63,958 nucleotides of DNA from Candidatus Omnitrophota bacterium (GTDB taxonomy: Bacteria; Omnitrophota; Gorgyraeia; Aquiviventales; Aquiviventaceae), in the NCBI GenBank assembly GCA_016209275.1, contig JACQWM010000015.1, positions 1 through 63,958 of the forward strand, given 5' to 3'. Shown here piece by piece: positions 10,841-63,685 of the stretch. Made by a program: the position numbers and the translations under genes. The notes beneath the pieces are model-generated. The model did not search any database and was not told the DNA's origin. It saw nothing but the letters and a program-made list of their open reading frames with translations. Position 1 is the stretch's first letter; every line of letters starts with the position of its first letter.

Positions 10841-11602
10841 TTATATCAGAAGAACCGCCAGCACGCTGATCGCCGCCGTCTCAGAGCGCAAGACCGCGCG
10901 GCCCAACGAAACCGCCACAGCCCCTGCGGCCGAGGCGTGGCGGACTTCCTGCGGCGTAAAATCGCCTTCCGGCCCGATGCAAACGAGCATTGACGATAAA
11001 GCCAGAGTCGGCTGGGGGCTAGGAGCTGGGGGCTGGGGGTTCAGGGAGGATAGCACCTCGCGCAAGGGGATGGTGCCAGGACCGAGGGTGGGCAACAGCA
11101 CGCGGGAAAATTCATGAAAGCGCTGTGTAAGTTCGGCGAAGCGCTGCGGCGACTCGATGATCGGCAGCACCGCCTGGCCGCATTGCTGGGCGGCCTCCCG
11201 GCTGATCGCTTGCCACCGGCCAACCTTGCGCTGCCCCTGTTCCTTGGTCAAGCGGATGATCGTCCGCTCTGTCACCAGCGGGATGATCTGTGCTGCCCCA
11301 AGCTCGGTCGCCTTCTGGATGGCCCAATCAAACCGATCCGCAGGCAGCAGGGCCATGGCCAGCGCGATCCGACGCTGCTGTGCCGGGACTTGCCGATGCC
11401 TACGCACCGCCACGCGCACCTGGCCTGACGCGCACTGGTCGATCACGCCGTCATAAATCGCGCCAGAGCCGTCGAAACATTCAAGGCCGTCCCCGGCTCG
11501 CAGCCGCAGCACGCGCACCAGATGATGCACGTCCTTCGGGTTAGCGATGGTGATGGTCGAGCCCTTGATGTCTTCAGGCGGGACAAAGACGCGGTGCATC
11601 AT
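10841..11602 (-). CDS. rsmE: 16S rRNA (uracil1498-N3)-methyltransferase RsmE
   Basis: MMHRVFVPPEDI..HHLVRVLRLRAGD.., C-terminal ..CIGPEGDFTPQE... Carries an in-frame heptamer array (see 11011-11045). Confidence 0.88.
   Translation of the reverse strand: MMHRVFVPPEDIKGSTITIANPKDVHHLVRVLRLRAGDGLECFDGSGAIYDGVIDQCASGQVRVAVRRHRQVPAQQRRIALAMALLPADRFDWAIQKATELGAAQIIPLVTERTIIRLTKEQGQRKVGRWQAISREAAQQCGQAVLPIIESPQRFAELTQRFHEFSRVLLPTLGPGTIPLREVLSSLNPQPPAPSPQPTLALSSMLVCIGPEGDFTPQEVRHASAAGAVAVSLGRAVLRSETAAISVLAVLLI
11011..11045. repeat. Tandem heptamers GCTGGGG/GCTAGGA/GCTGGGG/GCTGGGG/GTTCAGG inside the rsmE coding sequence
   Basis: Read directly. The minus strand is (CCCCAGC)n and encodes ..NPQPPAPSPQP.. 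just before the conserved GPEG motif. Confidence 0.85.
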
Positions 11603-11684: not shown

Positions 11685-11757
11685 TGGAGCTGGCGGGAGT
11701 TGAACCCGCGACCTCTTGGGTGCGATCCAAGCGCTCTCCCAACTGAGCTACAGCCCC
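11685..11757 (-). tRNA. tRNA-Ala (anticodon CGC)
   Basis: Reverse complement GGGGCTGTAGCTCAGTTGGGAGAGCGCTTGGATCGCACCCAAGAGGTCGCGGGTTCAACTCCCGCCAGCTCCA. G3:U70 identity pair, anticodon loop AUCGCAC, T-loop GGTTCAA. CCA is not encoded. Confidence 0.93.
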
Positions 11758-11770
11758 TCGTCGAGCGTGT

Positions 11771-11798
11771 GACGTTTAACGTGAAACGTGTAACGTGG
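11771..11798. repeat. Four phased heptamers GACGTTT/AACGTGA/AACGTGT/AACGTGG upstream of tRNA-Ala
   Basis: Read directly. The same GAAACGT-type 7-mer alphabet occurs in the asd insert (47930-47998) and in hairpin 2 of the pilus leader. Confidence 0.7.
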
Positions 11799-12586: not shown

Positions 12587-13015
12587 TTACGGGCCTGGTG
12601 CTGGTGCTGGCGCGCCTGCGCACGCGGTCCCTCCATAGGTGGCCGGATCATCCGTACACACATCACCGGTCGAAAATGTAATCTTTATGATCTTATCTTT
12701 ACTATCGCCCCCGTTTCTTTTAGCGGTGGCTGTTCCGCCGGCCGCATCGACAGTAAAGTCCCACGACTTGCCCGCGGCGGCAAGGTCGATATCAAGGTCA
12801 GCAAATGCCGCGTACGCACCAGTGTTCGAGAGCGCTTTCGCGCGAATTTCCGAGCTTCGGACTGCAGCCAGCGCGCTTAACGCTTCCGCCGCGCGAGCGC
12901 GCTCGCTGGTTCGCAAATATTGCGGCAGCGCAATGGCCGCAAGAATCGCAAGAATGATGACCACCATCATCAGTTCCAACAGCGTAAACCCTCCCCTACT
13001 CCTGGCTCGTCTCAT
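12587..13015 (-). CDS. Type IV (pseudo)pilin, probable major subunit
   Basis: Prepilin leader MRRARSRGG|FTLLELMMVVIILAILAAIALPQY. C-terminal Cys pair (..DVCTDDPATYGGTAC..). AAGGAGGAG Shine-Dalgarno. Confidence 0.88.
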   Translation of the reverse strand: MRRARSRGGFTLLELMMVVIILAILAAIALPQYLRTSERARAAEALSALAAVRSSEIRAKALSNTGAYAAFADLDIDLAAAGKSWDFTVDAAGGTATAKRNGGDSKDKIIKITFSTGDVCTDDPATYGGTACAGAPAPAPGP

Positions 13016-14277: not shown

Positions 14278-14285
14278 TGTACTGT

Positions 14286-14372
14286 GATTACGGTGATTTC
14301 AAATTCTGATTACAATGATCAGACGTCCACGATGCGTTATCACTGTAATCGCTTTGTAAAATCACTGTAATC
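14286..14372. repeat. Four copies of the 12-mer GATTACNNTGAT: two direct and two inverted, 22 nt between copies within each pair
   Basis: GATTACGGTGAT 14286-14297, GATTACAATGAT 14308-14319, ATCACTGTAATC 14339-14350 and 14361-14372. Fills the pilB-pilC gap. Confidence 0.85.
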
Positions 14373-14381
14373 ATCGTCGAA

Positions 14382-16100: not shown

Positions 16101-16146
16101 GCACACTAGAGGTAGCGCAGGTTTAAACCTGCGCTACCTTGTGTGC
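16101..16146. repeat. Palindrome between pilQ and pilB (perfect 28-nt core 16111-16138)
   Basis: GGTAGCGCAGGTTTAAACCTGCGCTACC, with outer arms GCACAC/GTGTGC. GTAGCGC also recurs just outside the right arm. Confidence 0.9.
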
Positions 16147-20561: not shown

Positions 20562-21227
20562 TTACAGGCACGCCCCTGCCGGCGGCGGACTCACGTTATT
20601 CACGTCGATCCCAGGCCCGGTATCTCCTGCCGGCACCTGGGCATTGGACTCGGAAATGAGTCGAGCGATGGCTTCCCCGGAAAAGACGTGGGTATTGCCA
20701 GCACCATCATTCCAGGTGAACGCATATTCAACAACGTTATTGCCCACAGCACCCGGCAGCGCACCGCTTTCGTTGCGGAAGTTGAATGTCAGCGCAGTGA
20801 TTTGGTTGGCCAGCACCTTGACCGGCGCGCAGGGAGCACCTGCGCCGCGCTCGATAAATTCCAGCGCGTTGCCAACGGTGCGCCGGTATTCTTCCCACCG
20901 GTAGTTGGCCGCGTTATTAAAGCACGCTGGATCGCCTTGGGGAGCCGGCGGCGGCGGGCACTCCACATGCCGCGCCTGCAGCACAGTTCCATTCAGGATG
21001 CGAATCCGGTTGGCGCGCTCGATCGCTCGTGTGAGCGTCATCGTGGCCAACCCGGCGTTGGCTTGCTCGCCTTGGGTAAGCTGATACGTGTCTTTCAGCG
21101 CATCGTGCATGCGCGTGCGCCCCGCGTCAATCATGGCCATGCCGACTAAGACGACCACGGCGATGGCCGAGGCCACGAGAAGCTCCAGTAAGGTGATCGC
21201 TCGATGGCTAACGATGTCTACGTGCAT
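20562..21227 (-). CDS. Minor pilin (PilW/FimT-like), atypical leader
   Basis: Trimmed to MHVDIVSHRA|ITLLELLVASAIAVVVLVGM..; Ala rather than Gly at position -1. Confidence 0.7.
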   Translation of the reverse strand: MHVDIVSHRAITLLELLVASAIAVVVLVGMAMIDAGRTRMHDALKDTYQLTQGEQANAGLATMTLTRAIERANRIRILNGTVLQARHVECPPPPAPQGDPACFNNAANYRWEEYRRTVGNALEFIERGAGAPCAPVKVLANQITALTFNFRNESGALPGAVGNNVVEYAFTWNDGAGNTHVFSGEAIARLISESNAQVPAGDTGPGIDVNNVSPPPAGACL

Positions 21228-21646
21228 GTTCCACACGCTTGCGCGGTATTCCAACAAATTTGGACATCGATGGCTATGCATCCTCCCCCAGGACAATCCA
21301 CTCCGGCACCAAGTTGGCGAACTCGATAGCATCGAAGAGGACCCGCCAACCCCTTGCTTCCCCTGGCATCAGCAATGTTATCGGCCTGCCATCCTTGCGC
21401 GATCAGGTTGCAGTTCGCATCAAACCATGCTGGATCATCACATGCAATGTGGTTTCGCAATCGCTCAATCGTCTGCTGGGCCAGGGCGCTGGCCTCCGCA
21501 TAGCGGGTGTTGTTTTCATTCTTTGACATGCGGGCGGTGGACATGATGGCCATCATCGCGCCGGCCGCTACCACGGCAAACAAAATCGCGCCGATCATCA
21601 CTTCCATGAGCGTAAACCCTTTTGGGGCGATCGGCTTCATGGTCAT
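21218..21646 (-). CDS. Minor pilin (PilV/GspI-like)
   Basis: MTMKPIAPKG|FTLMEVMIGAILFAVVAAG..; Cys-rich C-terminus. Confidence 0.8.
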   Translation of the reverse strand: MTMKPIAPKGFTLMEVMIGAILFAVVAAGAMMAIMSTARMSKNENNTRYAEASALAQQTIERLRNHIACDDPAWFDANCNLIAQGWQADNIADARGSKGLAGPLRCYRVRQLGAGVDCPGGGCIAIDVQICWNTAQACGTCT

Positions 21647-22029
21647 GGTTCAGGCCACCCTGAAACATCCAGCCTTCCAGCTTCATTCATCGTCATCGAC
21701 TGTGCACCGCTGCTGGCCGTGGCTGTAAACGTGGCGTTTGGTCCTGTGCCAGCGCCAGCCGCGATGGCGTAGCCGACAGGACCCCCATTTGGGTTATCCA
21801 TAAAAATGTCCGCCCAGTTGGCGCTGTACTGATCGGCCTTGGACCAATAGGTGATCTCTCCGGCGCGGATGGTATGGAGCATGTCCCGGGCCTGCATCCA
21901 ATGGCTGCGCTCGATGGCGCGCTGATACATGGGCAGCGCGATCGCGGCCAAAATGGCGATGATGATCACCACGATCATGAGTTCCATTAGGGTCATGCCG
22001 TGCGCAACGCCTGCCGTCGTTCGTCTCAT
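21643..22029 (-). CDS. Pilin-like protein (PilE/GspG-like)
   Basis: ..VAHG|MTLMELMIVVIIIAILAAIALPMYQRAIE.. Confidence 0.8.
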   Translation of the reverse strand: MRRTTAGVAHGMTLMELMIVVIIIAILAAIALPMYQRAIERSHWMQARDMLHTIRAGEITYWSKADQYSANWADIFMDNPNGGPVGYAIAAGAGTGPNATFTATASSGAQSMTMNEAGRLDVSGWPEP

Positions 22030-22523
22030 TCGATCACCGGCTCTTCCGGCAGCGGATCACCAAGCAACGGAGGAGACCCGCCGCCAACCGGCCATGTCTG
22101 ATCCGCGCCTGGCGGCTTCGTTGTCGGATCCCAGGCATGAGTGACAGACAGAAACGAGTTGACGCCCTGCCGTTGCGCTGTGGCCGTAAACGTTGCCAAT
22201 GCCCCTGCTAAAGGTCTGCCGGTCCCATCGGTTGAAACCGCCACCCGAAACACGACCCCATCAACCGTGGGCAGCGGAGTGTAAATCTGCCGAAAGTCCG
22301 CCACGGCGGTGCCCGCAGTTGAGTCGACCGGCAGGAAGGTATTGTTCTGCGCCCAGTAGGCCCGTTCGCCAGCATAGATGGCACGAAGGATATCGATGGC
22401 GGCTTCCCGACGACGATTTTCAACCGCGCGCTGATACTGCGGCAGGGCGATCGCGGTGAGGACCGCCAGCAGCAAGACCGCAGCCAGCATCTCCATCAAG
22501 GTGAACCCTTGCGATCGCATCAA
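22026..22523 (-). CDS. Pilin-like protein
   Basis: MMRSQG|FTLMEMLAAVLLLAVLTAIALPQYQRAVE.. Confidence 0.8.
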   Translation of the reverse strand: MMRSQGFTLMEMLAAVLLLAVLTAIALPQYQRAVENRRREAAIDILRAIYAGERAYWAQNNTFLPVDSTAGTAVADFRQIYTPLPTVDGVVFRVAVSTDGTGRPLAGALATFTATAQRQGVNSFLSVTHAWDPTTKPPGADQTWPVGGGSPPLLGDPLPEEPVIE

Positions 22524-22846
22524 TACGCCACTCGGGTTGAAATTTCACGCGGCGTTGGACATGGCCCGGGAGGAGTGCACACCCCCGGACACGCAGAGAC
22601 CGTCACCACAACACTCACTCCATTTACCGCCAGCGGCCCGGCAGGGCTCCAACAGCCATTGAGTCTGAGCTGCTCTTGCGCCCACGTGACGCCGGCTTCG
22701 GAGGCGTAGAGCGCTTGGCTGCGCAGGCGGTGGAACCTGGCCCGGTGCGCCTCATTGCTCGCCATGGCCAGCAGCGCCATGCACACGATGGCGATCAAAA
22801 TCGCCGCCACCATCGCGAACGTCAGCACAAATCCTCTATTCTTCAT
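22520..22846 (-). CDS. PilX-like minor pilin (no Glu5), first gene of the pilus operon
   Basis: MKNRGFVLTFAMVAAILIAIVCMALLAMASNEAHR..ALYASEAGV..; GGAG Shine-Dalgarno 3 nt upstream of the ATG. Confidence 0.7.
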   Translation of the reverse strand: MKNRGFVLTFAMVAAILIAIVCMALLAMASNEAHRARFHRLRSQALYASEAGVTWAQEQLRLNGCWSPAGPLAVNGVSVVVTVSACPGVCTPPGPCPTPREISTRVAY

Positions 22847-22857
22847 CGTCTCCAGGC

Positions 22858-22895
22858 GATATCAGATATGAAACGGCCGTTTCATATCTGATATC
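22858..22895. repeat. GATATCAGATATC-family palindrome, copy 2
   Basis: GATATCAGATATGAAACGG|CCGTTTCATATCTGATATC, between the terminator and the pilX-like start. Confidence 0.95.
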
Positions 22896-22930: not shown

Positions 22931-23170
22931 CAATCTCTGCCTCTGGTCGGCCTCGGACTTCGTCCTCGGCACGCTCATCGGCGACCACGCACGCTGTGCG
23001 TGGTGCCCGCCTCGAGCGGCAGCTCGGCCATCTCAAGAGACCCGTAGCTTTGCCCCTCCTACGCTCAAACGTTTTCACGTTTGAGCTTCGGAGGGCCCTG
23101 CGTAGCTCAATCGTGCAAACGATTGAGCGAAGCAGGGGTCCCCAGATTACTCTGGGTTTGCCTTTATCGA
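22931..23170 (-). ncRNA. Candidate structured RNA of unknown class (sRNA or cis-acting leader of the pilus operon)
   Basis: No credible ORF. The region lies between a promoter-like element and the terminator. Hairpins: CCCAGA-GUAA-UCUGGG (23156-23141), two abutting paralogous two-tier hairpins (23137-23096 and 23095-23054), and CCACGCAC-AGC-GUGCGUGG (23003-22985). Confidence 0.5.
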
Positions 23171-28726: not shown

Positions 28727-28761
28727 CGCAATCGTTCAACACGCAACAACGATTATCGCAG

Positions 28762-28838
28762 ATAGCACATAGCACACAGCACATAGCAACAGCGTCATCT
28801 CTCTGCTATTGGCTATCTGCTATGTGCTATGCACTATC
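28762..28838. repeat. Heptamer-array hairpin: (ATAGCAC/ACAGCAC)x4 - loop - (TGCTATG-type)x5
   Basis: ATAGCAC ATAGCAC ACAGCAC ATAGCAA .. TGCTATT GGCTATC TGCTATG TGCTATG CACTATC, upstream of uvrA. Confidence 0.9.
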
Positions 28839-28856
28839 GGCTTCACGAGCAGTTTC

Positions 28857-31143: not shown

Positions 31144-31185
31144 GCGATATCAGATATGAAACGGCTGTTTCATATCTGATATCGC
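31144..31185. repeat. GATATCAGATATC-family palindrome, copy 3
   Basis: GCGATATCAGATATGAAACGGCTGTTTCATATCTGATATCGC. Contains the folK stop codon. Confidence 0.95.
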
Positions 31186-32853: not shown

Positions 32854-32943
32854 GCGACCCATGACCCATGACGCATGACGCATGACTAAAACCAAGCACG
32901 ACAGTGTGGGTCGTGTGTCATGGGTCATGTGTCTTGTGTCACT
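32854..32943. repeat. Heptamer-array hairpin: (CATGACN)x4 - loop - (NGTCATG-type)x5, copy 1
   Basis: CATGACC CATGACG CATGACG CATGACT .. GGTCGTG TGTCATG GGTCATG TGTCTTG TGTCACT. The right arm encodes the dapB C-terminus. Confidence 0.9.
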
Positions 32944-33698: not shown

Positions 33699-34615
33699 GT
33701 CGCCCTCTGTGTGCTGTGTGCCTTGCTGGATTTCAACAACCCATAGCTTTCGAGCGTCATCTGCAACCGTTCATGGTTCGTCTCGGACATCTCGCATAAT
33801 GGCAATCGCAGCTCAGGCTGGATCATGCCCAAAATCCCCATCGCGGTCTTGACCGGAATGGGGTTCGTCTCCAAGAACATCGCCTTGGTCAGCGGCAGCA
33901 GCCGGTGATGCCACTGGATGGCTTCGGCCCGCTCGCCGGCCTCAAATGCCGCCACCATCGCGGCCACATCCTTCGGCACGATATTCGCCACCACCGAGAT
34001 GACCCCTACCCCGCCGATCGCCAGGACGGGGAGTGTCAGCGCATCATCGCCGGAAATCAGCGCGATCTTGCCCTGGGTCAGCTGCAGAATCCGGCTCATC
34101 TGCTCAAGGTTCCCGCTGGACTCTTTCACCGCCACGATATTCGGAATTTGTGCCAATTGCGCAAAGGTCTCCGGCTCGATGTTGACCGCCGTGCGCGACA
34201 TGATGTTATAGGGAATCAGCGGCAGCTCCACCGCATCGGCAATCGCCTTAAAGTGCAGGTACAAGCCCCGCTGGGTCGGCTTATTGTAGTAGGGGCTGAT
34301 CAAGAGCGCCGCATCCGCGCCGGAGTCCTGCGCGTGCTTGGTGATGCGGATGGCTTCTCGCGTGCTATTGGAGCCCGTACCAGCGATCACCGGAATCCGG
34401 CCGCGGGCGGCTTTGACCGACAGTTTAATGACGCGGTCGTGCTCTTCAAACGACAGCGTCGCCGATTCGCCGGTGGTTCCGCAGGGCACAATCGCGGTCG
34501 TGCCGGATTTCACATGCCAATCGATGAGATGCTTGAGCGCCTTCTCATCAATTGCATCGTCGCGAAACGGCGTGACGATCGCCACCATGGAACCCCGCAA
34601 GCGCAGTGTGCTCAT
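33680..34615 (-). CDS. dapA: 4-hydroxy-tetrahydrodipicolinate synthase
   Basis: ..GSMVAIVTPFRDD..GTTGESATLS... The C-terminal tail ..SSKAHSTQRATWPLNW overlaps the dapB start and contains the GTGTGCTGTGTGCC repeat. Confidence 0.92.
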   Translation of the reverse strand: MSTLRLRGSMVAIVTPFRDDAIDEKALKHLIDWHVKSGTTAIVPCGTTGESATLSFEEHDRVIKLSVKAARGRIPVIAGTGSNSTREAIRITKHAQDSGADAALLISPYYNKPTQRGLYLHFKAIADAVELPLIPYNIMSRTAVNIEPETFAQLAQIPNIVAVKESSGNLEQMSRILQLTQGKIALISGDDALTLPVLAIGGVGVISVVANIVPKDVAAMVAAFEAGERAEAIQWHHRLLPLTKAMFLETNPIPVKTAMGILGMIQPELRLPLCEMSETNHERLQMTLESYGLLKSSKAHSTQRATWPLNW

Positions 34616-35502
34616 ACCGAAACCTCGCCGTCGAAGACGCGTTGTGCAGGCCCTTCCATGACGACATCAGCCACGCGCCAGGTTCCACGCTGCGGTTGCG
34701 CCATGCATGAGACGGCCACCAACTCCCCGCTGCGGGGTTGAAGGGTCATGCGAAATCGCTGCGGACGAGATGATGCCTTGGCTCGGCCCAATACTGCGAC
34801 GATCGCTGAGGCCACCATGCCAGTGCCACAGGCCAAGGTTTCATCCTCCACCCCCCGCTCGTACGTTCGGATCTTCAGTCGATGGGGACCCAGCCGCTGG
34901 ATGAAATTGACGTTGGTGCCCTGCGGCGCAAACACCTTGTGAAATCGCAACCGGCGCCCCAAGCCCTCGACGTCAATCGTCTCAAGGTTGGGAACGGCCA
35001 CCACCATATGCGGCACGCCAGTATTCACAAACCCATAGCGAATCGTCCGTGCGCCGACCTTCAGCGACTGCTGCAGCTGCAACTCGGTTGGCTCCATCAT
35101 TCGCGTCGCCACACGGTTGCCCTGCACCCGCGCCGATAACGTCCCCGCCAATGTCTCTAAGGTGATGGCTTTGCTGCTGTGTGCTGTGTGCTGCCCGCCC
35201 CGGCTCTGCGGGTCGGGCCGGGGTGTGCTGTGTGCCAAATACAGCGCGACACAGCGCGCGCCATTGCCGCACATCTCAGCCTCAGAACCATCGGCGTTGA
35301 AGATGCGCATTTTCGCGGCGGCTGAGCGCGATGGCTCCAACAGCAGCATCCCATCCGCGCCGATGCCGTGGTGCCGGTCGCACAAGGCTTGGCTGACAGC
35401 GCTCCATCGTCTTGAGACGCCGTTACACTGACGGCGCCTGGCATCCACGACAATAAAGTCATTGCCGGTGCCGGCCATTTTGGTAAAGGGAATCTTCTTC
35501 AT
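34612..35502 (-). CDS. dapF: Diaminopimelate epimerase with a repeat-encoded insertion
   Basis: MKKIPFTKMAGTGNDFIVVD..; ..EAEMCGNGARC..; ..LACGTG... Confidence 0.9.
   Translation of the reverse strand: MKKIPFTKMAGTGNDFIVVDARRRQCNGVSRRWSAVSQALCDRHHGIGADGMLLLEPSRSAAAKMRIFNADGSEAEMCGNGARCVALYLAHSTPRPDPQSRGGQHTAHSSKAITLETLAGTLSARVQGNRVATRMMEPTELQLQQSLKVGARTIRYGFVNTGVPHMVVAVPNLETIDVEGLGRRLRFHKVFAPQGTNVNFIQRLGPHRLKIRTYERGVEDETLACGTGMVASAIVAVLGRAKASSRPQRFRMTLQPRSGELVAVSCMAQPQRGTWRVADVVMEGPAQRVFDGEVSV
35172..35236. repeat. In-frame repeat insert in dapF: GCTGTGT heptamers flanking a GC hairpin
   Basis: GCTGTGT GCTGTGT GCTGCCC .. CCCCGGC-n12-GCCGGGG .. GTGTGCTGTGTGCC. The 14-mer GTGTGCTGTGTGCC also occurs at 33708-33721. 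Confidence 0.8.
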
Positions 35503-36776: not shown

Positions 36777-36790
36777 GAAAGTCTTCCAAA

Positions 36791-36830
36791 CGATATCAGA
36801 TATGACACCGCCATTTCATATCTGATATCG
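36791..36830. repeat. GATATCAGATATC-family palindrome, copy 4
   Basis: CGATATCAGATATGACACCGCCATTTCATATCTGATATCG, between argH and lysA. Confidence 0.95.
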
Positions 36831-36833
36831 CTC

Positions 36834-41535: not shown

Positions 41536-42387
41536 TCAGTGAACAATCTCCGTGCCGATGCCTTGCTTCGTAAAGATTTCCAAGAGCATGGCGTGCGGGA
41601 TGCTGGCGTCGATGATGTGCGTCTTCTTCACACCGATGCGCAACGCATTCACGCACGCTTTGACCTTCGGAATCATGCCTTCTTGGATGACCTGGCGCTC
41701 GATCAGCGTCTTGGCCTCCTTCACGGAGAGGGTTGAAATGAGCGAGCCTTCATCGCTGGCGTGCCGCAAAATGCCTCGGACGTTCGTGAGCAGGACGAGC
41801 TTCTCCGCCTTCAGATACGCCGCCACTTCGCTGGCCACGTCATCGGCGTTGATGTTGTACAGCTGCTCCCCATCCCCGATCCCCACCGGCGAAATCACCG
41901 GAATCGCGTTGTGCCGCAGCGCCTGGCGGATCCGGCCGGCCTGCACCATGCGCACCGACCCGACGAATCCCAGCTCAGCGCACCTGGCATGCGGCTGCGC
42001 GATAATCACCCAATGCCGCGGCACCAACCCCTCGGCGTCTCCGTTGAGCGCCTTGATCTGTGTCACGAGCCGCCCATTGACCTTTTCGAGCTCCTCATTG
42101 ACCACGCGAATGGCCTCGGCATCCGTCACGCGCATGCCATCGATGAACGCGCTTTTCTTGCCGCCCTCCGAGAGCTTTTTCGTGATCATCGGCCCGCCGC
42201 CATGCACGAGCACTGGGTGGATGCCGACCGCCCGCAGGAAGACGAGATCCTGCAGGATGCCTTTCATGGCTGTTGGATGATCAATGGCGCTGCCGCCATA
42301 TTTGACCACGACCACCTTCTGGTGAAACTGCTGAATGTACGGCAGCGCCTCAATCAGGATGTCGGCCTTCCTAATAGATTCCTCCAT
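41536..42387 (-). CDS. argB: Acetylglutamate kinase
   Basis: Trimmed to MEESIRKADILIEALPYIQQFHQKVVVVKYGGSA... The upstream residues of the track ORF are encoded by the CATGAC repeat. Confidence 0.92.
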   Translation of the reverse strand: MEESIRKADILIEALPYIQQFHQKVVVVKYGGSAIDHPTAMKGILQDLVFLRAVGIHPVLVHGGGPMITKKLSEGGKKSAFIDGMRVTDAEAIRVVNEELEKVNGRLVTQIKALNGDAEGLVPRHWVIIAQPHARCAELGFVGSVRMVQAGRIRQALRHNAIPVISPVGIGDGEQLYNINADDVASEVAAYLKAEKLVLLTNVRGILRHASDEGSLISTLSVKEAKTLIERQVIQEGMIPKVKACVNALRIGVKKTHIIDASIPHAMLLEIFTKQGIGTEIVH

Positions 42388-42393
42388 CTCAGG

Positions 42394-42485
42394 ACCGACC
42401 CATGACCCACGACTCATGACACATGACCAAAGAACCGTTAGCCGTTTGAGGTCGTGGGTCGTGCGTCATGTGTCGTGTGTCGCCG
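42394..42485. repeat. Heptamer-array hairpin: (NCATGAC)x5 - loop - (GTCRTGN)x5, copy 2
   Basis: GACCGAC CCATGAC CCACGAC TCATGAC ACATGAC .. GTCGTGG GTCGTGC GTCATGT GTCGTGT GTCGCCG. Aligns with 32854-32943. Confidence 0.9.
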
Positions 42486-44746: not shown

Positions 44747-44782
44747 GCGATATCAGATATCGAAATCGATATCTGATATCGC
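44747..44782. repeat. GATATCAGATATC-family palindrome, copy 5
   Basis: GCGATATCAGATATCG-AAAT-CGATATCTGATATCGC, between rpsI and argC. Confidence 0.95.
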
Positions 44783-45699: not shown

Positions 45700-45728
45700 A
45701 TTATAGCTCGGCTTCAAGATGTTGTCAA
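45700..45728 (-). promoter_or_regulatory. Perfect-consensus sigma70 promoter 12 nt upstream of the rplM ATG
   Basis: Minus strand: TTGACA (45728-45723), 17 nt, TATAAT (45705-45700), aacaactttcga, ATG. The methyltransferase TGA stop lies inside the -35 hexamer. Confidence 0.6.
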
Positions 45729-46678: not shown

Positions 46679-47458
46679 TCAATCATCATAGCCGACGCAA
46701 ACGAGCGTGAGCCCCTTCGCCGGCGCCGTCGCGCCGGCCAGCGACCGCTGGCCCTCCCGCAGCATCCGCCGCACGATGCCACGCGGCAATCGCCCGCGGC
46801 CGACATCCATCACGGTGCCGGCGAGGCTTCGAACCATCGTATGAAGAAACCCATTGCCCTCCACCTCAAGATGAAGCTCCTTGCCGCGCCGGATAAGCGC
46901 GATGCCATAAATGGTCCGGCGCGTCGACCGAAGCGTCTTTCCTTCCTCGCGGGCAAACGCGCGAAAATCATGCGCGCCCTTAGCCGCTGCGGCTTCCCGG
47001 CGCATGGCTGCGAGATTCAGCGGCGCATGCACGCGATGCACATACGGCCGAATAAAGGGCGGGGGCGCATCCCCAAGAAAGATCCGGTAACGATACCGCT
47101 TGCGCTTCGCAGCATACTGCGCATGGAACCCCCTTAAGGCCTCCTCAATGCTGGTCACGACGATGTCAGAGGGCAAGAGGTGGTTGGCGGCTTTGCGCAA
47201 CGTCTTGGTCTCGATCATCGAGCGGGTTCTGACGTGAGCGACTTGAGCTTCGGCATGCACGCCGGCATCCGTCCTGCCGCTGCCGATGACCCGCACGTCT
47301 TCGTGGAGGATGGTCTTGAGAACCTTCTGGAGCGTTCCCTGGATGGTTGGCGTCTGCGTGTTGCGTGTCTGAATTTGCCAACCCGCATATCGGGTGCCGT
47401 CGTAGGCGATGGTGAGTTTGAGGGTGCGAGTTCCGGTGCCAGGTCCTCTCTTCGTCAT
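46679..47458 (-). CDS. truA: tRNA pseudouridine(38-40) synthase TruA
   Basis: ..LKLTIAYDGTRYAGWQIQ..GSGRTDAGVHA.. Confidence 0.92.
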   Translation of the reverse strand: MTKRGPGTGTRTLKLTIAYDGTRYAGWQIQTRNTQTPTIQGTLQKVLKTILHEDVRVIGSGRTDAGVHAEAQVAHVRTRSMIETKTLRKAANHLLPSDIVVTSIEEALRGFHAQYAAKRKRYRYRIFLGDAPPPFIRPYVHRVHAPLNLAAMRREAAAAKGAHDFRAFAREEGKTLRSTRRTIYGIALIRRGKELHLEVEGNGFLHTMVRSLAGTVMDVGRGRLPRGIVRRMLREGQRSLAGATAPAKGLTLVCVGYDD

Positions 47459-48534
47459 GTCTTCACAAAATTGGACCTGGCACCGCCGATGAGGAGTTCA
47501 GCGATTTGGATGGCGTTGGTGGCCGCCCCCTTGCGCAGGTTATCGCCGCTCACCCACAAGGCGAGGCCCCGTTTCACCGACGCATCCCTGCGCAGCCGGC
47601 CGACAAGGACGTTGTCTTGCCCACCCGCATCAATGGGCAGCGGATAGGCGCCGCGCGCAGGATCATCGACCAGCGTCACGCCTGGCGCCTTGCGCAAGAG
47701 CCTGGCCGCCTGCTCGGCCGAGAGCGGCCGTTTCGTTTCGATCCAAACCGCCTCGGAGTGCGCTCGGAACACCGGCACCCGAACGCATGTGGACGTCACG
47801 GCAAGCTGCGGCTCCCCAAGAATCTTCCGAGTCTCGTTGACCATCTTCATCTCTTCTTTCGTGGAGCGGTTCTTCAGGAAGAGGTCGACCTGGGGGATCA
47901 CGTTGAACGCAATCTGCTTCGGTAAGACGGTTTCATGTTTCAGGTTCCAGGTTTCAAGTTGAGGTTTAACCTGAAACGTGGAACGTGAAACCTGAAACTG
48001 CCGCAAGGCTCGCTTCGTTTCGTCATAAAGTTGAAACATGGCTTTCGCGCCGGCCCCTGAGACGGACTGATAGGTGGACACGATGATCCGCGTGATCCGC
48101 GCCGCTCGATGCAACGGGGCCAGCGGGACGAGCATAATGATGGTCGAGCAGTTAGGATTGGCGATCAAGCCCTGATGGCCTTTCAGCGCGCGAGGATTGA
48201 CCTCCGGAATAACCAGCGGGACCTCCGGCGCCATGCGGAACGCGCTGGAGTTATCCACGACAATCGCCCCGCGTTTGACGGCTTCAGGAGCAAACTCCAG
48301 GCTGCGGGCAGCCCCGGCGCTAAAGAGCGCCACATCGATTCCGGCAAACGATCGCGGTGTCAGCTCCTCCACGCGATACGTGGAGCCGTTGAACGGCACT
48401 CGACGGCCTTCTGACCGCGCTGAGGCCAGCACTTTCAGCCCCACCACCGGAAAGCGCCGCTGCTGCAAGACTCGCAGCATCTCGGTGCCCACAGCACCTG
48501 TGGCTCCGACAACTGCAACGTTGATTTTTTTCAT
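47455..48534 (-). CDS. asd: Aspartate-semialdehyde dehydrogenase with a repeat-encoded loop
   Basis: MKKINVAVVGATGAVG..; ..ANPNCSTI..; ..STKEEMKMVNETRKILG... Confidence 0.93.
   Translation of the reverse strand: MKKINVAVVGATGAVGTEMLRVLQQRRFPVVGLKVLASARSEGRRVPFNGSTYRVEELTPRSFAGIDVALFSAGAARSLEFAPEAVKRGAIVVDNSSAFRMAPEVPLVIPEVNPRALKGHQGLIANPNCSTIIMLVPLAPLHRAARITRIIVSTYQSVSGAGAKAMFQLYDETKRALRQFQVSRSTFQVKPQLETWNLKHETVLPKQIAFNVIPQVDLFLKNRSTKEEMKMVNETRKILGEPQLAVTSTCVRVPVFRAHSEAVWIETKRPLSAEQAARLLRKAPGVTLVDDPARGAYPLPIDAGGQDNVLVGRLRRDASVKRGLALWVSGDNLRKGAATNAIQIAELLIGGARSNFVKT
47930..47998. repeat. 69-nt heptamer-array palindrome in frame inside asd
   Basis: GTTTCAT GTTTCAG GTTCCAG GTTTCAA GTTGAG GTTTAAC | CTGAAAC GTGGAAC GTGAAAC CTGAAAC. 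Encodes QFQVSRSTFQVKPQLETWNLKHE. Confidence 0.9.
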
Positions 48535-48540
48535 CGGTGC

Positions 48541-49578
48541 CTAGACCAAAAGCCCCTTGACAACAAGATCGCCGACTTCGCTGGTGGAATACCCCATCTT
48601 GCCGGCGGCAAGACTCTTCAGTTTCGTCGCGGTGATGTTTATGACCGCGCGCTCGATGGCGGCGGCAGCCTTCATCTGACCCAAATGCTCGAGCATCATC
48701 GAACCGGCACAGATGGCCGCCAGCGGGTTGATCACATGCTTGCCGGTGTACTTGGGGGCCGAGCCTCCGATCGGCTCAAACATGGAGACCCCCTGGGGAT
48801 TCAGATTGCCGCCGGCCGCGATCCCCATGCCGCCTTGGATCATGGCGCCTAAGTCCGTGATGATGTCGCCGAACATGTTATCCGTGACGATCACGTCAAA
48901 CCACTCGGGGTTCTTCACCATCCACATGCAGCAGGCATCGACATGGGTGTAATCAGTTTGAATATCCTTGTACTCCTTGGCGACGTCTTCAAACACGCGC
49001 TGCCATAAATCGTGCGCGAAGGTCAGCACATTGGTCTTGCCGCACAGCGTCAGTTTCTTTCTGGATCGCTTGCGCGTCGTCTCAAACGCGAAGCGGATGC
49101 AGCGCTCAACACCCTTGCGCGTGTTCACCGACGTCTGCAGCGCGACCTCATCGGCCGTGCCTTTGCGCAAAAATCCTCCCACGCCGGCGTAGAGCCCTTC
49201 GGTGTTCTCGCGCACCACCACGAAGTCGATGTCCTCAGGCTGCTTATCCCTCAAGGGCGTCCACACCCCGGGATACAGCTTCACCGGACGCAGATTGATG
49301 TATTGGTCCAGCTCGAAGCGCAGCCGTAGCAGAATGCCCTGCTCCAGGATTCCCGGCTTGACGTCGGGATGCCCGATGGCGCCGAGATAAATGGCGCCGG
49401 CCTCGCGCAGCTCTTTCAAGACGCTCGAAGGCAGGGTCTCTTTGGTTTTCAAATACCGAGCACCCCCCAGGTCATACTCGCGCCACTCAAGACGAAAATG
49501 GCCCTGACTCGCCGCCGCCTCAAGCACTTTGCGGCCCTCGCGGATCACTTCAGGGCCGGTGCCATCTCCAGGAATCAC
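48541..49578 (-). CDS. leuB: 3-isopropylmalate dehydrogenase; start uncertain
   Basis: ..IAVIPGDGTGPEV.., ..NMFGDIITDL... Conservative GTG start at 49578 (MIPGDG..). The alternative ATG at 49692 would translate the CGCAGAT repeat and overlap leuD. Confidence 0.85.
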   Translation of the reverse strand: MIPGDGTGPEVIREGRKVLEAAASQGHFRLEWREYDLGGARYLKTKETLPSSVLKELREAGAIYLGAIGHPDVKPGILEQGILLRLRFELDQYINLRPVKLYPGVWTPLRDKQPEDIDFVVVRENTEGLYAGVGGFLRKGTADEVALQTSVNTRKGVERCIRFAFETTRKRSRKKLTLCGKTNVLTFAHDLWQRVFEDVAKEYKDIQTDYTHVDACCMWMVKNPEWFDVIVTDNMFGDIITDLGAMIQGGMGIAAGGNLNPQGVSMFEPIGGSAPKYTGKHVINPLAAICAGSMMLEHLGQMKAAAAIERAVINITATKLKSLAAGKMGYSTSEVGDLVVKGLLV

Positions 49579-49593
49579 CGCAATCCGATAAGA

Positions 49594-49670
49594 CGCAGAT
49601 TTCCGCAGATTGCTACGCCGATTACCACTGATCTGCGGCGATCTGCGTTGAAGATCTGCGGTAATCTGCG
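49594..49670. repeat. CGCAGAT-family element, copy 1 (7-mer cores at 10-13 nt spacing, inverted arms)
   Basis: CGCAGAT at 49594 and 49604; ATCTGCG at 49631, 49641, 49654 and 49664. About 70-75% alignable by eye with 56187-56270. Confidence 0.85.
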
Positions 49671-49672
49671 TT

Positions 49673-50317
49673 CTAGTCGTCCGGGTGGTCATCGTTGACT
49701 CGCAATGGTGTTGGGCAGCTTGGCATGAAGCCTCGCGCCCGAGCATACGAAAAGAGATCCCCCGCCTCCAACATCGGAACAATGTCGCTCAGCGGACTCA
49801 GCGTCCATGAGGTCTTCAGGGCCGGCACATACAGCACCGGCTTGCTCGTATTCGCCAGCACCAGCTCGCCCTCCATGCCGGTGTGAACCACGTCGCAGAG
49901 CCGCTCAGCCGGCGAATCGCACGGCAACAGATACCCGCCGTTGACGCAGTTACGGTAGAAAATCCTGGCAAAAAACTCGGCGATCACCGCGCGCACGCCG
50001 GCTTGCTGCAGCGCGATCGGCGCATGCTCCCGAGACGAACCGCACCCAAAATTTTTGCCTGCCACAATCAGGGGAAACCGGCCGGGCGGCTGCCCTTCGC
50101 GGCTAAACGGCGTGCCGCCCTTGGGCAACCCTTGCGCGGCTTCCGGCACCCCAGAGAGCGCGTACCAGCCGAACTTCGCCTTCTCGTCGGACCGTGAGGG
50201 ATCCAAACTCAGATACTGCGCAGGAATGATCTGGTCGGTGTCGATATTATCCCCAACCACATAGATCGCGCCCTTGATCACATCAGAAATCTTATGATTC
50301 GAAGACGGCATGATCAT
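49673..50317 (-). CDS. leuD: 3-isopropylmalate dehydratase small subunit
   Basis: 214 aa; ..[17 protein letters not shown].., ..[15 protein letters not shown].. Confidence 0.9.
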
Positions 50318-51624: not shown

Positions 51625-51664
51625 CGATATCAGATATCAAACGGCCGTTTGATATCTGATATCG
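51625..51664. repeat. GATATCAGATATC-family palindrome, copy 6 (identical to copy 1)
   Basis: CGATATCAGATATCAAACGGCCGTTTGATATCTGATATCG. Contains the thiG stop codon. Confidence 0.95.
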
Positions 51665-54362: not shown

Positions 54363-56276
54363 CTACGGATCCGACGTGAGGCGCTGCCGGGCGGCTGCCA
54401 GGTTGCGGCGCGCAGCCGCATGGGCGGGCTGTTGCCGCAAGAGCTCCGCGTACTGGGCGATCGCATCAAGCGTCTTCCCTTGATGCAACAGGACATTGCC
54501 GAAATTGAGCCGAGCCTCCGCCAGCGTAGGATCATCGCGGATGGCCGCGGCGTACGCGGCGGCGGCCTCCGCCCAGCGGTCTTGTTGCGCATACGCATTG
54601 CCGAGATTGTACCGGACGGTCGCCGCATGCGGAGCGATCTGCAGCGCGCGGTGATAGGCGGCGATGGCCGCCGACGGCTGTCCGAGCCTCATGTGGACAT
54701 TGGCCGCGTTGTTGTGCGCCTCGATCAGCAAAGGGTTGATCGCCAGCGCGCGCTGGTACCGCCGCATCGCCGCACCCAGATCGCCTTGCTGCTCCAGGAT
54801 CTTGCCGAGATTGCTGTGCGCCTCGGCGTAGTCAGGCTTCAGCTGGAGCGCTCGTGTTAATTGCGCGCGCGCCTCATCGCGCCGTCCAGCGTCGATCAGC
54901 GCATTGCCGAGATACAGACGCGCTCGGGGATTATCCGGGCGCGCCGCCACCGTCGCCGCCCAGATCGCGTCGCTGCTGCGATAGTCGGCGTTTCGCCGAA
55001 TCGTGCGGCTCCCCAGCACGACGACCGACACCGCGAGCAGTCCGGCGGCGATCCGGGGACGCGCAGACGGCGGAGCGAACCGCCCGAGCAGGCGCCATGC
55101 GCCGAGCACGATCAGGGCGATGATCGGAGCCAGCGGCAGATACATGCGGTACTCGCAGGCGGCATCGGCGAGCGGAACGACGCTTGAGCTGAGGGCTAGC
55201 AGCGCCACGGCGATCGCCGCGAGTCCGCCCGCGACCGGCGCTCGGCGCAGCGCCCAGCCAATGAGGATGAGGACCGCCACGCATCCCAGCGCCGCCGGCC
55301 ACACATCAGCCAACCGGGTGCTGAGCGGCCACGCGTAATCCAGTGCGAGCGGCGAAGGCCACACGACAAGCCGCAGATAATGCCACACGACCTTCGTCTG
55401 CGTGAGCAGGTAGGCCCATGGGGTGACCGGCTGATACGGGAAGCTGGCCTCCGGCGCTGCCAGGACGGTGATGAACGGCAACACCCCGCCGATGATCGCG
55501 CACACCGTGATCAGGGAGAGGAACAGGGAGCGGCGCTGACACCGCGCATCTGCCTCTGTTCGTGATAGGACAAACCGATCGTACGCGAAGGCGACGAACG
55601 GCAAGGTGGCCATGCTTGGCTTGCTGGCCATGCCGAGCCCGCACCAGACCACGGCCGCCATGCGCCACCTTCGAGGATGCGCCGCCTCAGCGCTGCGGAT
55701 GACGCTGTAGAGCGCGGCACAATAGCAAAGCCCCATCAACGATTCGGAGCGTTGGATGATGTAGGTGACGCTCGCGGTCTGCAGCGGATGGACCAGCCAG
55801 ATCAGGGCCACCGCCAGTGCGAGCCCCTCGGCAGCGCCTGAGGTGCCCGGCCCTTCAGGAAGCCTCTGGCGCATCCTGATGGTTCGGCGGGCGATGCCGA
55901 AGAGCGCCAGCGACGCGGCAAGATGAATCGCCAGGTTCACCGCGTGATACCCCCACACCGTCACCCCGCCCAACGCGTAGTTGAGGGCCAGCGTGAAGGT
56001 AATGAGCGGGCGGCCGTTGAATGCGCCGCGCTCGGCCGCCGTCAAGACATCCCACAACGGCCAGAGATGGTGGACGTGCCGATTCGTCACGATCGCGGGA
56101 ATATCGTCGAAGATGAACGGCCCGCCGAAACTATTGTGGTACGCCCAGAGCCCGGTGAGAATGATTAAAATCTTAAACCATGAGGACGCAGATTGCGGCA
56201 GATGGCTTCGCAGATGACCGCTGATCCGCGGAAATCTGCGCTGAGAATCAGCGGTGATCGGCGTTATCGGCATCAA
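54363..56276 (-). CDS. Membrane PMT/TMTC-like glycosyltransferase-type domain fused to C-terminal TPR repeats; start uncertain
   Basis: 637-aa ORF. ..NSFGGPFIFDDIPAIVTN.. followed by about 10 TM segments, then TPR repeats (..LGNALIDAGRRDEARAQLTRALQLKPDYAEAHSNLG..). The first ~30 codons are encoded by the CGCAGAT repeat and overlap the upstream gene. Confidence 0.7.
   Translation of the reverse strand: MMPITPITADSQRRFPRISGHLRSHLPQSASSWFKILIILTGLWAYHNSFGGPFIFDDIPAIVTNRHVHHLWPLWDVLTAAERGAFNGRPLITFTLALNYALGGVTVWGYHAVNLAIHLAASLALFGIARRTIRMRQRLPEGPGTSGAAEGLALAVALIWLVHPLQTASVTYIIQRSESLMGLCYCAALYSVIRSAEAAHPRRWRMAAVVWCGLGMASKPSMATLPFVAFAYDRFVLSRTEADARCQRRSLFLSLITVCAIIGGVLPFITVLAAPEASFPYQPVTPWAYLLTQTKVVWHYLRLVVWPSPLALDYAWPLSTRLADVWPAALGCVAVLILIGWALRRAPVAGGLAAIAVALLALSSSVVPLADAACEYRMYLPLAPIIALIVLGAWRLLGRFAPPSARPRIAAGLLAVSVVVLGSRTIRRNADYRSSDAIWAATVAARPDNPRARLYLGNALIDAGRRDEARAQLTRALQLKPDYAEAHSNLGKILEQQGDLGAAMRRYQRALAINPLLIEAHNNAANVHMRLGQPSAAIAAYHRALQIAPHAATVRYNLGNAYAQQDRWAEAAAAYAAAIRDDPTLAEARLNFGNVLLHQGKTLDAIAQYAELLRQQPAHAAARRNLAAARQRLTSDP
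56187..56259. repeat. CGCAGAT-family element, copy 2
   Basis: CGCAGAT 56187, GGCAGAT 56197, CGCAGAT 56209, ATCTGCG 56234, plus CCGCTGAT/ATCAGCGG inverted arms. Confidence 0.85.
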
Positions 56277-58593: not shown

Positions 58594-58600
58594 CCTAATG

Positions 58601-58670
58601 GATTTCCGATTGTCGATTGAAAATCACACATCGACAATGAATCGTCAATCGAACATCGTCAATCGTCAAT
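58601..58670. repeat. Phase-7 repeat array GATTNNN x3 .. CGTCAAT-type x5, with an internal palindrome ATTGTCGAT..ATCGACAAT
   Basis: GATTTCC GATTGTC GATTGAA AATCACA CATCGAC AATGAAT CGTCAAT CGAACAT CGTCAAT CGTCAAT, between the two permease genes. Confidence 0.85.
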
Positions 58671-58671
58671 G

Positions 58672-63657: not shown

Positions 63658-63685
63658 TTGGAATTTGGGTTTTGGGATTTAACCA
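63658..63685. repeat. Direct heptamers TTGGAAT/TTGGGTT/TTGGGAT/TTAACCA filling the gap-pgk junction
   Basis: Read directly. The whole 28-nt intergenic spacer is four phased 7-mers. No Shine-Dalgarno precedes the pgk ATG. Confidence 0.8.

Follow-up and report, generated by a model that had tools for sequence, protein, structure and literature searches.

Heptanucleotide arrays and hairpins in a long same-strand gene string of Candidatus Omnitrophota and their turnover among related genomes

The stretch analyzed here (the window) comprises the 63,958 nucleotides of contig JACQWM010000015.1 from a Candidatus Omnitrophota bacterium (assembly GCA_016209275.1), and is a piece of Omnitrophota chromosome. 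It contains a series of hairpins and tandem arrays built from 7-nucleotide units, of which the CATGACN hairpin at 32854-32943 is the focal example. The minus strand carries about 60 consecutive genes, nearly every gene of the 64-kb window. The GC skew is steadily negative over positions 1-63958, and the G+C content is 62%. Pfam matches identified argC-J-B-D-F-G-H, lysA-dapF-dapA-dapB, a class I/II aminotransferase gene, panC, an Asp dehydrogenase-like gene, uvrA, leuB-asd-truA, rplM-rpsI, rsmE and type IV pilin-like genes. As judged from these matches, the assigned genes are those of housekeeping biosynthesis and repair; a folK-like gene is assigned by similarity only. DapB, Asd and ArgG have their nearest relatives (70-80% amino-acid identity) in groundwater 'Candidatus Omnitrophota' metagenome-assembled genomes. 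The loci of relatives were fetched with these three proteins, and comparison loci are denoted by L-numbers (e.g. L082).

The focal hairpin clearly shows the architecture proposed in an earlier, sequence-only reading of the stretch, namely tandem 7-mers, a spacer and an inverted array. Repeat scans confirmed it as (GACNCAT)x4.4, a 20-nt spacer and an inverted array of 4.6 copies. The left arm consists of GACCCAT, GACCCAT, GACGCAT, GACGCAT and a final GAC, and the right arm of GTGGGTC, GTGTGTC, ATGGGTC, ATGTGTC and TTGTGTC. The final six codons and the stop codon of dapB are encoded by the right arm. The minimum free energy (MFE) of the hairpin RNA is -39.1 kcal/mol for the minus strand (z -3.7) and -46.9 kcal/mol for the plus strand. 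The 7-phased elements of the window, with the palindromes of the GATATCA family, are the following.

32854-32943: focal CATGACN hairpin (arms 32856-32886 and 32906-32940), between dapB and the class I/II aminotransferase gene
42394-42485: second CATGACN hairpin, filling the argJ|argB junction; its loop is unrelated to that of the focal hairpin
28750-28845: ATAGCAC/ACAGCAC hairpin immediately upstream of uvrA (MFE -52.9 kcal/mol, z -9.3, transcribed strand)
47930-47998: in-frame GTTTCAN hairpin of asd, at about residues 179-201 (a variable surface loop)
58598-58674: ATTGNCG/CGTCAAT hairpin at a junction of ABC permease genes, weaker than the rest (z -0.6)
35172-35236: in-frame TGCTGTG arrays of dapF, split by a G+C-rich palindrome nested within them (35194-35223)
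33706-33721: CTGTGTG x2 fragment at the 3' end of dapA
11010-11045: GCTGGGG (CCCCAGC) x4.3, tandem, in frame inside rsmE (10841-11602)
11771-11798: GAAACGT x3, tandem, immediately upstream of a minus-strand tRNA gene (11685-11757)
63656-63685: TTGGNNT x3.6, tandem, filling a 28-nt junction
47349-47368, minus strand: ACACGCA x3, in frame in a truA loop
1603-1642: GATATCA x2 perfect palindrome
22858-22895: GATATCA-family palindrome
31144-31185: GATATCA-family palindrome downstream of the folK-like gene
36788-36833: GATATCA-family palindrome at the argH|lysA junction
44747-44782: GATATCA-family palindrome at the rpsI|argC junction
51625-51664: GATATCA-family palindrome, identical to the copy at 1603-1642

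Period-7 self-similarity is present at 10-12 loci of the window. When the DNA was compared with itself at fixed lags (21-nt window, at least 16 matches, 30 dinucleotide shuffles as control), lag 7 gave 10 loci versus 0.1 expected from the shuffles; the other lags from 4 to 13, and lag 15, gave 0-2 loci each. Tandem Repeats Finder placed period-7 arrays of 2.1-5.1 copies at 14 places (starts at 11010, 11778, 28758/28802, 32856/32910, 33707, 35175, 42397/42450, 47929/47968, 58640 and 63656). An inverted-repeat scan pairs the arrays at 28758/28812, 32856/32907, 42410/42456 and 47937/47975, and 8 of the 12 stringent arrays (67%) have an inverted partner within 110 nt. The stems of the transcribed strand have MFE values of -38 to -53 kcal/mol with z scores of -2.9 to -9.3, except at 58598 (z -0.6) and 56183 (z -2.0). 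Their helices are regular, with about six pairs and then one mismatch per 7-mer. At least eight unrelated 7-mer cores stand side by side, and G tracts are missing from most units (CATGACN, ATAGCAC, GTTTCAN, GATATCA, ATTGNCG). The loci have one architecture and not one sequence, as had been claimed, and are not degenerate copies of one repetitive extragenic palindromic (REP) consensus.

An origin of the arrays by chance, in low-complexity sequence or as an assembly artefact is already refuted. Some of the listed fragments are indeed short (33706-33721, 11771-11798), and nothing further speaks for such an origin. Against it, the excess over shuffles is about 100-fold and limited to period 7, and dozens of independent assemblies show the same architecture. 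For run SRR12113390, an independent Logan assembly contains the 42394-42485 hairpin identically, base for base, so this hairpin is not an assembly artefact.

The sequence-only reading had placed an element in almost every intergenic gap, which was overstated. About 12 of the roughly 27 gaps of at least 20 nt hold a 7-phased element (our own tally, which takes in the GATATCA x2 palindromes); another strong hairpin is present in about 5 gaps, and about 10 are without any. Five of the loci listed as 7-mer elements are not 7-phased (16101-16146, 49594-49670, 56187-56259, 20426 and 23063-23086). Two elements, at 47349-47368 and 14285-14378, had been missed. The hairpins and stems without 7-nt phasing are given here.

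49593-49671: CGCAGAT hairpin, units 10-13 nt apart, a related junction hairpin
56187-56259: second copy of the CGCAGAT hairpin, units 10-13 nt apart
14285-14378: junction hairpin with GATTACAGTGAT units 21 nt apart
16101-16146: plain 13-bp stem
20426: element of period 9
23063-23086: simple stem, one of two adjacent stems

Four loci that had been described as junction elements are located within genes: 47930-47998 in asd, 35172-35236 in dapF, 33706-33721 in dapA and 11011-11045 in rsmE. With the dapB tail in the right arm of the focal hairpin, at least five loci are in frame within genes. The Asd product can be aligned with solved Asd structures over the full length, and an extra loop of about 17-23 residues is encoded by the hairpin. 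Arrays are tolerated in proteins. Their sites are those where extra sequence is tolerated: gene junctions, 3' tails of genes and enzyme surface loops. Around the palindrome at 35194-35223 (CCCGCCCCGGC...CGGGCCGGGG), the TGCTGTG array runs on at both sides; the palindrome looks like an insertion into a pre-existing heptamer array. Small dispersed repeats inside heptamer arrays have reportedly been seen in Nostoc.

The arrays are spread through the phylum. With the same scan, 52 period-7 arrays were found in one set of Omnitrophota loci (203 kb) and 48 in a second, independent set (286 kb), compared with 11 in 1.1 Mb and 4 in 0.6 Mb for loci of other phyla. The density is about one array per 4-6 kb in related Omnitrophota contigs versus one per 100-150 kb elsewhere. 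Other periods in the Omnitrophota sets gave 0-11 arrays, bar 14, which is twice 7. Periods 7 and 14 are the only ones strongly enriched, and there is a weaker excess of period 8 (11 arrays). The Omnitrophota loci with arrays span 35-71% G+C, so base composition is not the cause. Among Omnitrophota genomes of the same gene order, the number of arrays per 10 kb varies from 0 in L168 and L174 to about 10 in the JACPSQ locus L169. An inverted partner within 110 nt was found for 66 of 113 Omnitrophota arrays (58%). Occasional period-8 (L002, L019) or period-6 (L013) arrays occur at the same kinds of site; the period-8 arrays at L002 4965-5014 and L019 9922-10835 (AGTGATTG; GTTCAAAA) stand at junctions that carry period-7 elements elsewhere.

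More than 120 species-representative genomes, from at least 12 phyla, contain the CATGACN unit at 3.5 copies; by chance about 0.1 matches are expected, as estimated from the collection size and the pattern length. The hosts include Streptomyces, Chloroflexota, Cyanobacteria, Verrucomicrobiota, Gemmatimonadota, Planctomycetota and Burkholderiales. The DNA around these matches contains 342 period-7 arrays in 895 kb, 30% of them with an inverted partner. GGATTTT, GCGGATT and GGGGATT units occur both in these loci and in Omnitrophota. Clustering of the 7-mers into families was uninformative, as single linkage at up to one mismatch merges nearly all of them into one cluster. In several Nitrospira genomes, GTGAGRC/CTCACGY heptamer arrays are seen at the dapA|dapB junction in both orientations (L034 9955-9982, L074 9964-9994, L080 9961-9999, L011 2033-2063, L027 5073-5108 and L044 2177-2267, the last in hairpin form).

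The arrays are gained, lost and replaced rapidly. Contig JACPSR010000053 (28 kb, pieced together from L082 and L001) is syntenic with positions 25.9-52.5 kb of the window across 23 genes, and occupancy or family differs at most junctions, as in these five.

argJ/argB: 92-nt CATGACN hairpin in the window; 12 nt, empty, in JACPSR010000053
argC/argJ: overlapping genes in the window; 139-nt GGCTCAA hairpin in JACPSR010000053
argF/argG: 4 nt in the window; 127-nt GCGGATT hairpin in JACPSR010000053
argH/lysA: GATATCA palindrome in the window; GCGGATT hairpin in JACPSR010000053
dapB/aminotransferase gene: CATGACN hairpin in the window; CCTTGAA x4, tandem only, in JACPSR010000053

Each genome has its dominant family, GATATCA in the window and GCGGATT (three hairpin copies) in JACPSR010000053. 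The argF|argG and argG|argH junctions are empty in several of 13 related genomes, and in others of the 13 they carry GCGGATT, GCGGAAT, CAGTGAC, GAAAGTG, TTGGAAA or GAGGGGC elements. Between JACPSR and JACPSQ (89% DNA identity for L082 versus L083), argG|argH has GAGGGGC x5 in one and a CAGTGAC hairpin in the other.

Arrays inside genes turn over as well. One loop of uvrA is occupied by a GGCTCGG hairpin in L013 and by other arrays in L001 and L003, and is unoccupied in the window and L006. One dapF loop contains TGCTGTG in the window, CAGAAGG in L001 and CACGCTC in L006, and lysA loops also carry different 7-mers in different genomes. The truA loop has ACACGCA in the window, AAGGTAA in L082 (6678-6715) and ACGCACG in L083 (3629-3654). 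The truA segments with the unrelated arrays of L082 and L083 are of exactly equal length (45 nt); as compared here, this looks like replacement and not divergence.

Within arrays the variation is unit-wise: AABB or ABAB patterns are seen, and Tandem Repeats Finder also lists rows of period 14. Related genomes have different arm lengths and arrays in both the junction and the truA comparisons, and the two arms may be unequal, e.g. 4 versus 7 units at L001 3972-4079. In 37 inverted pairs, 77 of the 133 arm mismatches fall in one phase of the unit (54.5 +/- 2.9 expected), as whole-unit duplication and loss, independent in each arm, would produce. A common generating process, which had been suggested from the window, is strongly indicated by this variation together with the exclusive enrichment of period 7 throughout the phylum at any G+C. 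Strand slippage in 7-nt (or 14-nt) steps at replication would let arrays grow, shrink and homogenize. Intramolecular template switching at quasi-palindromes, stem selection, or both, could then make the inverted arm and keep it complementary, and families would reach new sites by some copying step.

Pairing has been kept in one old copy. The window, L082 and L083 have orthologous copies of the asd hairpin. Fourfold-degenerate sites of asd are 42.5% identical between the window and L082, versus 35% expected by composition, so synonymous sites are saturated. Over the same pair the hairpin DNA is 72% identical, its peptide 50% and the remaining Asd 82%. GTTTCA has become GTTTCG in all left-arm units, and TGAAAC has become CGAAAC in 3 of the 4 right-arm units. 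Four pairs are changed on both sides, compared with none in slid controls. All three sequences keep two mismatches that are spaced by 7 nt (alignment columns 22 and 29). The pairing may be maintained either by selection for the stem or by correction of one arm templated on the other. A test for purifying selection between L082 and L083 gave 5 differences in 187 nt of hairpin versus 45 in 182 fourfold-degenerate sites (Fisher p = 1e-10). It was discarded because both hairpins lie within a 630-nt tract of near identity in a sliding-window plot. This tract (L082 6000-6630 versus L083) has about one difference per 30 nt and extends over the 3' half of asd as well as the asd|truA hairpin. Recent recombination between populations of the same sample is its probable cause.

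The balance of this evidence tips, by a modest degree, towards the following reading: the elements are lineage-wide, fast-turnover heptanucleotide microsatellite palindromes that slippage and template switching have shaped and that are tolerated where a site permits them. They are best placed within the familiar phenomenon of heptanucleotide repeats, as an Omnitrophota variant that is dense and rich in hairpins, and not in a new class.

Several results weigh against this reading, at least in part. An exact-protein look-up with ArgJ returned one other contig of the same organism, with an identical sequence, and no slippage event was seen directly. (The corresponding look-up for strain variants of the aminotransferase had no match.) The compensatory changes in asd come from two independent lineages only. 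The GATATCA palindromes are near-identical, loop included, which looks like transposition and not like local growth. For the copying step, a shallow tblastn search of 565 kb of Omnitrophota DNA with IS200 TnpA and REP-associated tyrosine transposase (RAYT) queries gave nothing credible. When both strands of 18 elements were folded, neither was consistently favored by G-U pairs, so neither an RNA role nor an antisense role can be inferred and an RNA role is unproven. Finally, pairs of 7-mers of identical class between genomes number 22, versus 4.8 for permuted 7-mers, an excess that is partly inflated by orthologous arrays and by both arms being counted, and CATGACN, GGATTTT and GCGGATT recur across phyla. 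Such sharing points to sequence-specific copying, binding or selection, and local slippage does not predict it. Simple slippage leaves the recurrence of particular 7-mers across genomes and phyla unexplained, and this recurrence is the most interesting loose end.

The junction copies are probably transcribed, as non-terminating stem-loops. They would be read within the long same-strand gene strings and fold into stable stems. On the transcribed strand the stems lack a following U tract, so they are not terminators. Of the minus-strand heptamer stems, a terminator scan called none, apart from a small stem within the focal hairpin loop (23 sites were called overall in the window versus 14.9 +/- 4.0 in shuffles). 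With the Rfam 15 covariance models at the gathering score, the tRNA at 11685-11757 is the only match in the window, and no element matches. If the junction stems are active at all, we expect them to act as REP stem-loops do, as barriers to 3' exonucleases or as processing punctuation.

Selection for such a role could be the origin of the elements. They would then be RNA punctuation that provides 3' exonuclease protection, RNase III/RNase E processing or translation tuning in long operons, and the 7-nt phasing would be a by-product of how such stems most easily arise. In favor, a stable stem is present in about 17 of the 27 gaps (z down to -9), one strand carries nearly all genes of the window, GGAG-like motifs often follow the stems, which end 5-15 nt short of the next start codon, and the asd hairpin stayed paired through four compensatory changes. 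We nevertheless regard this origin as unlikely, since in related genomes the same junctions are empty and the stop codon overlaps the next start codon, many arrays are purely tandem, hairpins and arrays are found inside coding loops, the transcribed strand folds no better than the other, and the density falls to zero in some related Omnitrophota that have the same gene order. The mRNA stabilization or processing proposed in the sequence-only reading is possible for junction copies. It cannot be why the architecture exists, given the full hairpins in coding sequences (asd in the window, uvrA in L013), the tandem-only arrays and the lack of conserved junction occupancy between related genomes.

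A mobile origin would account for other features. In this case a single-stranded-DNA hairpin enzyme (a RAYT/IS200-type Y1 transposase or similar) would copy pre-formed palindromes of the REP/REPIN type, or of the type of miniature inverted-repeat transposable elements, to new sites, and slippage would only modify them later. The dominant family of each genome would follow from this, as would the family switch at one junction between genomes 89% identical and the heptamer classes common to genomes above chance. The GATATCA family is represented by 6-7 copies in 64 kb, and the GATATCAGATAT-AAAC palindrome of the window, loop included, is found at unrelated loci in four metagenome contigs of 64-66% G+C (L162 37-74, L163 6148-6185, L164 1984-2021 and L165 5402-5439). 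The flanks have no blastn match to the window; only the palindrome is shared. In the other families, loop, copy number and arm length vary, so no fixed unit is being copied. Moreover, the flanks show neither a conserved tetranucleotide nor an evident target duplication, tandem-only arrays are common, and one genome holds many families, whereas RAYTs usually have one REP type each. The search for a mobilizing gene suggested earlier, as described above, found no Y1 transposase in the 565 kb covered. We rate a mobile origin as rather unlikely. In L165 the palindrome stands between a 368-aa amidohydrolase-like open reading frame (ORF) and a glmS-like ORF, both named by eye. Two weak tblastn matches (E ~0.5) next to this palindrome were rejected, as they fall in the 368-aa ORF, which was judged by eye to be amidohydrolase (NagA)-like.

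The regular unit could also reflect proteins bound one per 7 nt to a core of 5-6 nt with one or two free positions, the arrays serving as nucleoid or mRNA organizers. The units have a conserved core and one or two variable, unpaired phases, and a limited set of cores (CATGAC, GGATT, GCGGAT) recurs across phyla. Cold-shock-domain proteins reportedly bind about one heptamer each, and the binding of heptamer repeats by CspB is cited in PMC4679880. However, at least eight unrelated cores coexist in the window, so a single reader protein cannot explain the arrays. Unit duplication by slippage also gives phase-restricted variation, and the arrays tolerate translation. Binding-site arrays appear very unlikely. 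A bolder proposal is that a dedicated cross-phylum machinery writes the arrays from a limited 7-mer vocabulary (CATGACN, GGATT-type, GCGGATT and others), is hyperactive in Omnitrophota and is coupled to fold-back copying, with the hairpins as operon punctuation selected even in coding sequences such as asd. Candidates for the machinery would be a polymerase or primase property, or an RNA-templated, reverse-transcriptase-like activity. We consider this proposal quite doubtful.

The microsatellite reading is consistent with what is established for other bacteria. The short tandemly repeated repetitive (STRR) units of heterocystous cyanobacteria are CCCCAGT, TTGGTCA and CAACAGT. The CCCCAGC array of the window is one base off CCCCAGT, which we take to be STRR1. 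STRR units in Calothrix and Nostoc go back to Mazel et al. 1990, as cited in PMC4692102. In the passages of PMC4679880 and PMC4692102 that quote Mrazek 2007, heptanucleotides outnumber every other class of longer simple repeats in many bacterial genomes, and slippage of the polymerase is proposed as the cause. The present arrays are like the STRR and other bacterial heptamer repeats in their tandem 7-nt units (three or more head to tail), mostly intergenic location, several unrelated 7-mers per genome, arm-length differences between related genomes and specific over-representation of period 7. They differ in the Omnitrophota host, the short arrays (3-5 units), the pairing of 58-67% of arrays with an inverted copy and the many in-frame copies in housekeeping genes. 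They are not cyanobacterial STRRs in the strict sense, as host and units differ and only CCCCAGC is close.

Inverted pairs are known as well. The GGGAATC heptamer of Xanthomonas occurs at about 185 sites per genome, with 70-75 pairs of convergent inverted repeats able to form stem-loops; 7-11% of the sites overlap ORFs, and the arrays are transcribed (PMC4692102, Rehm et al. 2015). Repeat length varies by species, the 'single or paired' type is kept, and 83% of sites are common to the genomes Xcc and Xac (PMC4692102). Convergent arrays of the same unit lie close together here too. In contrast to the one G-rich, quadruplex-capable unit of Xanthomonas, at least eight unrelated units are present here, most of them unable to form quadruplexes, and occupancy changes at most junctions. 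Geobacter metallireducens has several families of 4-5 tandem heptanucleotides (GGACCGG at 49 sites, MTYCTGA at 15 sites), within and between genes, with some classes mostly in pairs (Aklujkar et al. 2009, PMC2700814); they were read as regulator binding sites or regulatory RNAs. The several families, their location and the pairing are alike, but in Geobacter the copy number is fixed and near-identical members are many. The TAACTGA heptamer of marine Beggiatoaceae and cyanobacteria forms 2-6 intergenic direct copies in scattered phyla, immediately upstream of start codons, with 169 direct sets versus one inverted set (MacGregor 2015, PMC4679880). It is similar as an intergenic array of scattered phyla and dissimilar as a single 7-mer in direct orientation. 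The idea of an undescribed class does not survive these precedents, in particular the inverted pairs of Xanthomonas and the families of G. metallireducens, nor the presence of CATGACN arrays in more than 120 genomes of many phyla. Our literature search found no paper linking Omnitrophota with heptamer repeats.

Palindromic elements offer a second comparison. REP stem-loops stabilize mRNA, as in malE-malF. The elements resemble REP sequences, bacterial interspersed mosaic elements (BIMEs) and REPINs as short imperfect palindromes at junctions of co-transcribed genes with genome-specific families such as GATATCA, and the junction stems without U tracts are compatible with REP-type mRNA stabilization. 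Unlike REPs and BIMEs, they have arms of phased 7-mers, many families with few copies and no GTAG-type flank, and no RAYT was found in the 565 kb searched. GATATCA alone approaches the high copy number of REPs; other types have 1-2 copies in the window with different loops. Nor are the elements strictly extragenic, with copies in asd, dapF, dapA, rsmE, truA and the dapB tail. Rickettsia palindromic elements (100-150 bp) are tolerated in frame in surface loops of essential proteins. The in-frame insertion is similar, but these are copies of a few consensus sequences without 7-nt phasing, whereas the inserts here measure 20-70 nt and have no common consensus.

Heptanucleotide repeats were first seen in cyanobacteria around 1990 and were reported as over-represented across bacteria in 2007. 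The Omnitrophota clade is a dense and tractable case for the old question of the 7-nt unit, its spread and its function, in which slippage versus copying, maintenance at the DNA versus the RNA level, and a role in operon expression become testable. In proteins such as Asd, DapF, UvrA and RsmE, the arrays also add or replace peptide segments, about 7-25 residues long. In addition, they extend ORFs across junctions and mislead gene callers. The longest ORFs of leuB (48541-49782), of the gene at 54363-56276 and of argB (41536-42417) extend upstream through junction hairpins, so mechanical ORF calls over-extend N-termini; the Logan gene call places the argB start at 42388.

The same-strand gene string is unusually long, and many of its genes overlap by 1, 4 or 8 nt. 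A perfect sigma-70 consensus, TTGACA-17 nt-TATAAT, is present on the minus strand at 45700-45728, upstream of rplM-rpsI, in one of the few gaps without a hairpin. The tRNA gene at 11685-11757 (minus strand, 67.8 bits) lies within a 984-nt gap, directly downstream of the GAAACGT x3 array. Genes at 20562-22846 and 12587-13015 form a type IV pilin/pseudopilin-like cluster with the N-terminal methylation motif. One of them (21643-22029) matches ComP_DUS below threshold (21.6 bits versus a cut-off of 27.3). The idea that the arrays are DNA uptake sequences was rejected, as this match is too weak and the many different 7-mers do not fit. Upstream of the pilin-like cluster, near the GATATCA palindrome at 22858-22895, positions 23053-23138 contain two similar adjacent 19-bp stems (CCCTCCTACGCTCAAACGT... 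and CCCTGCGTAGCTCAATCGT...).

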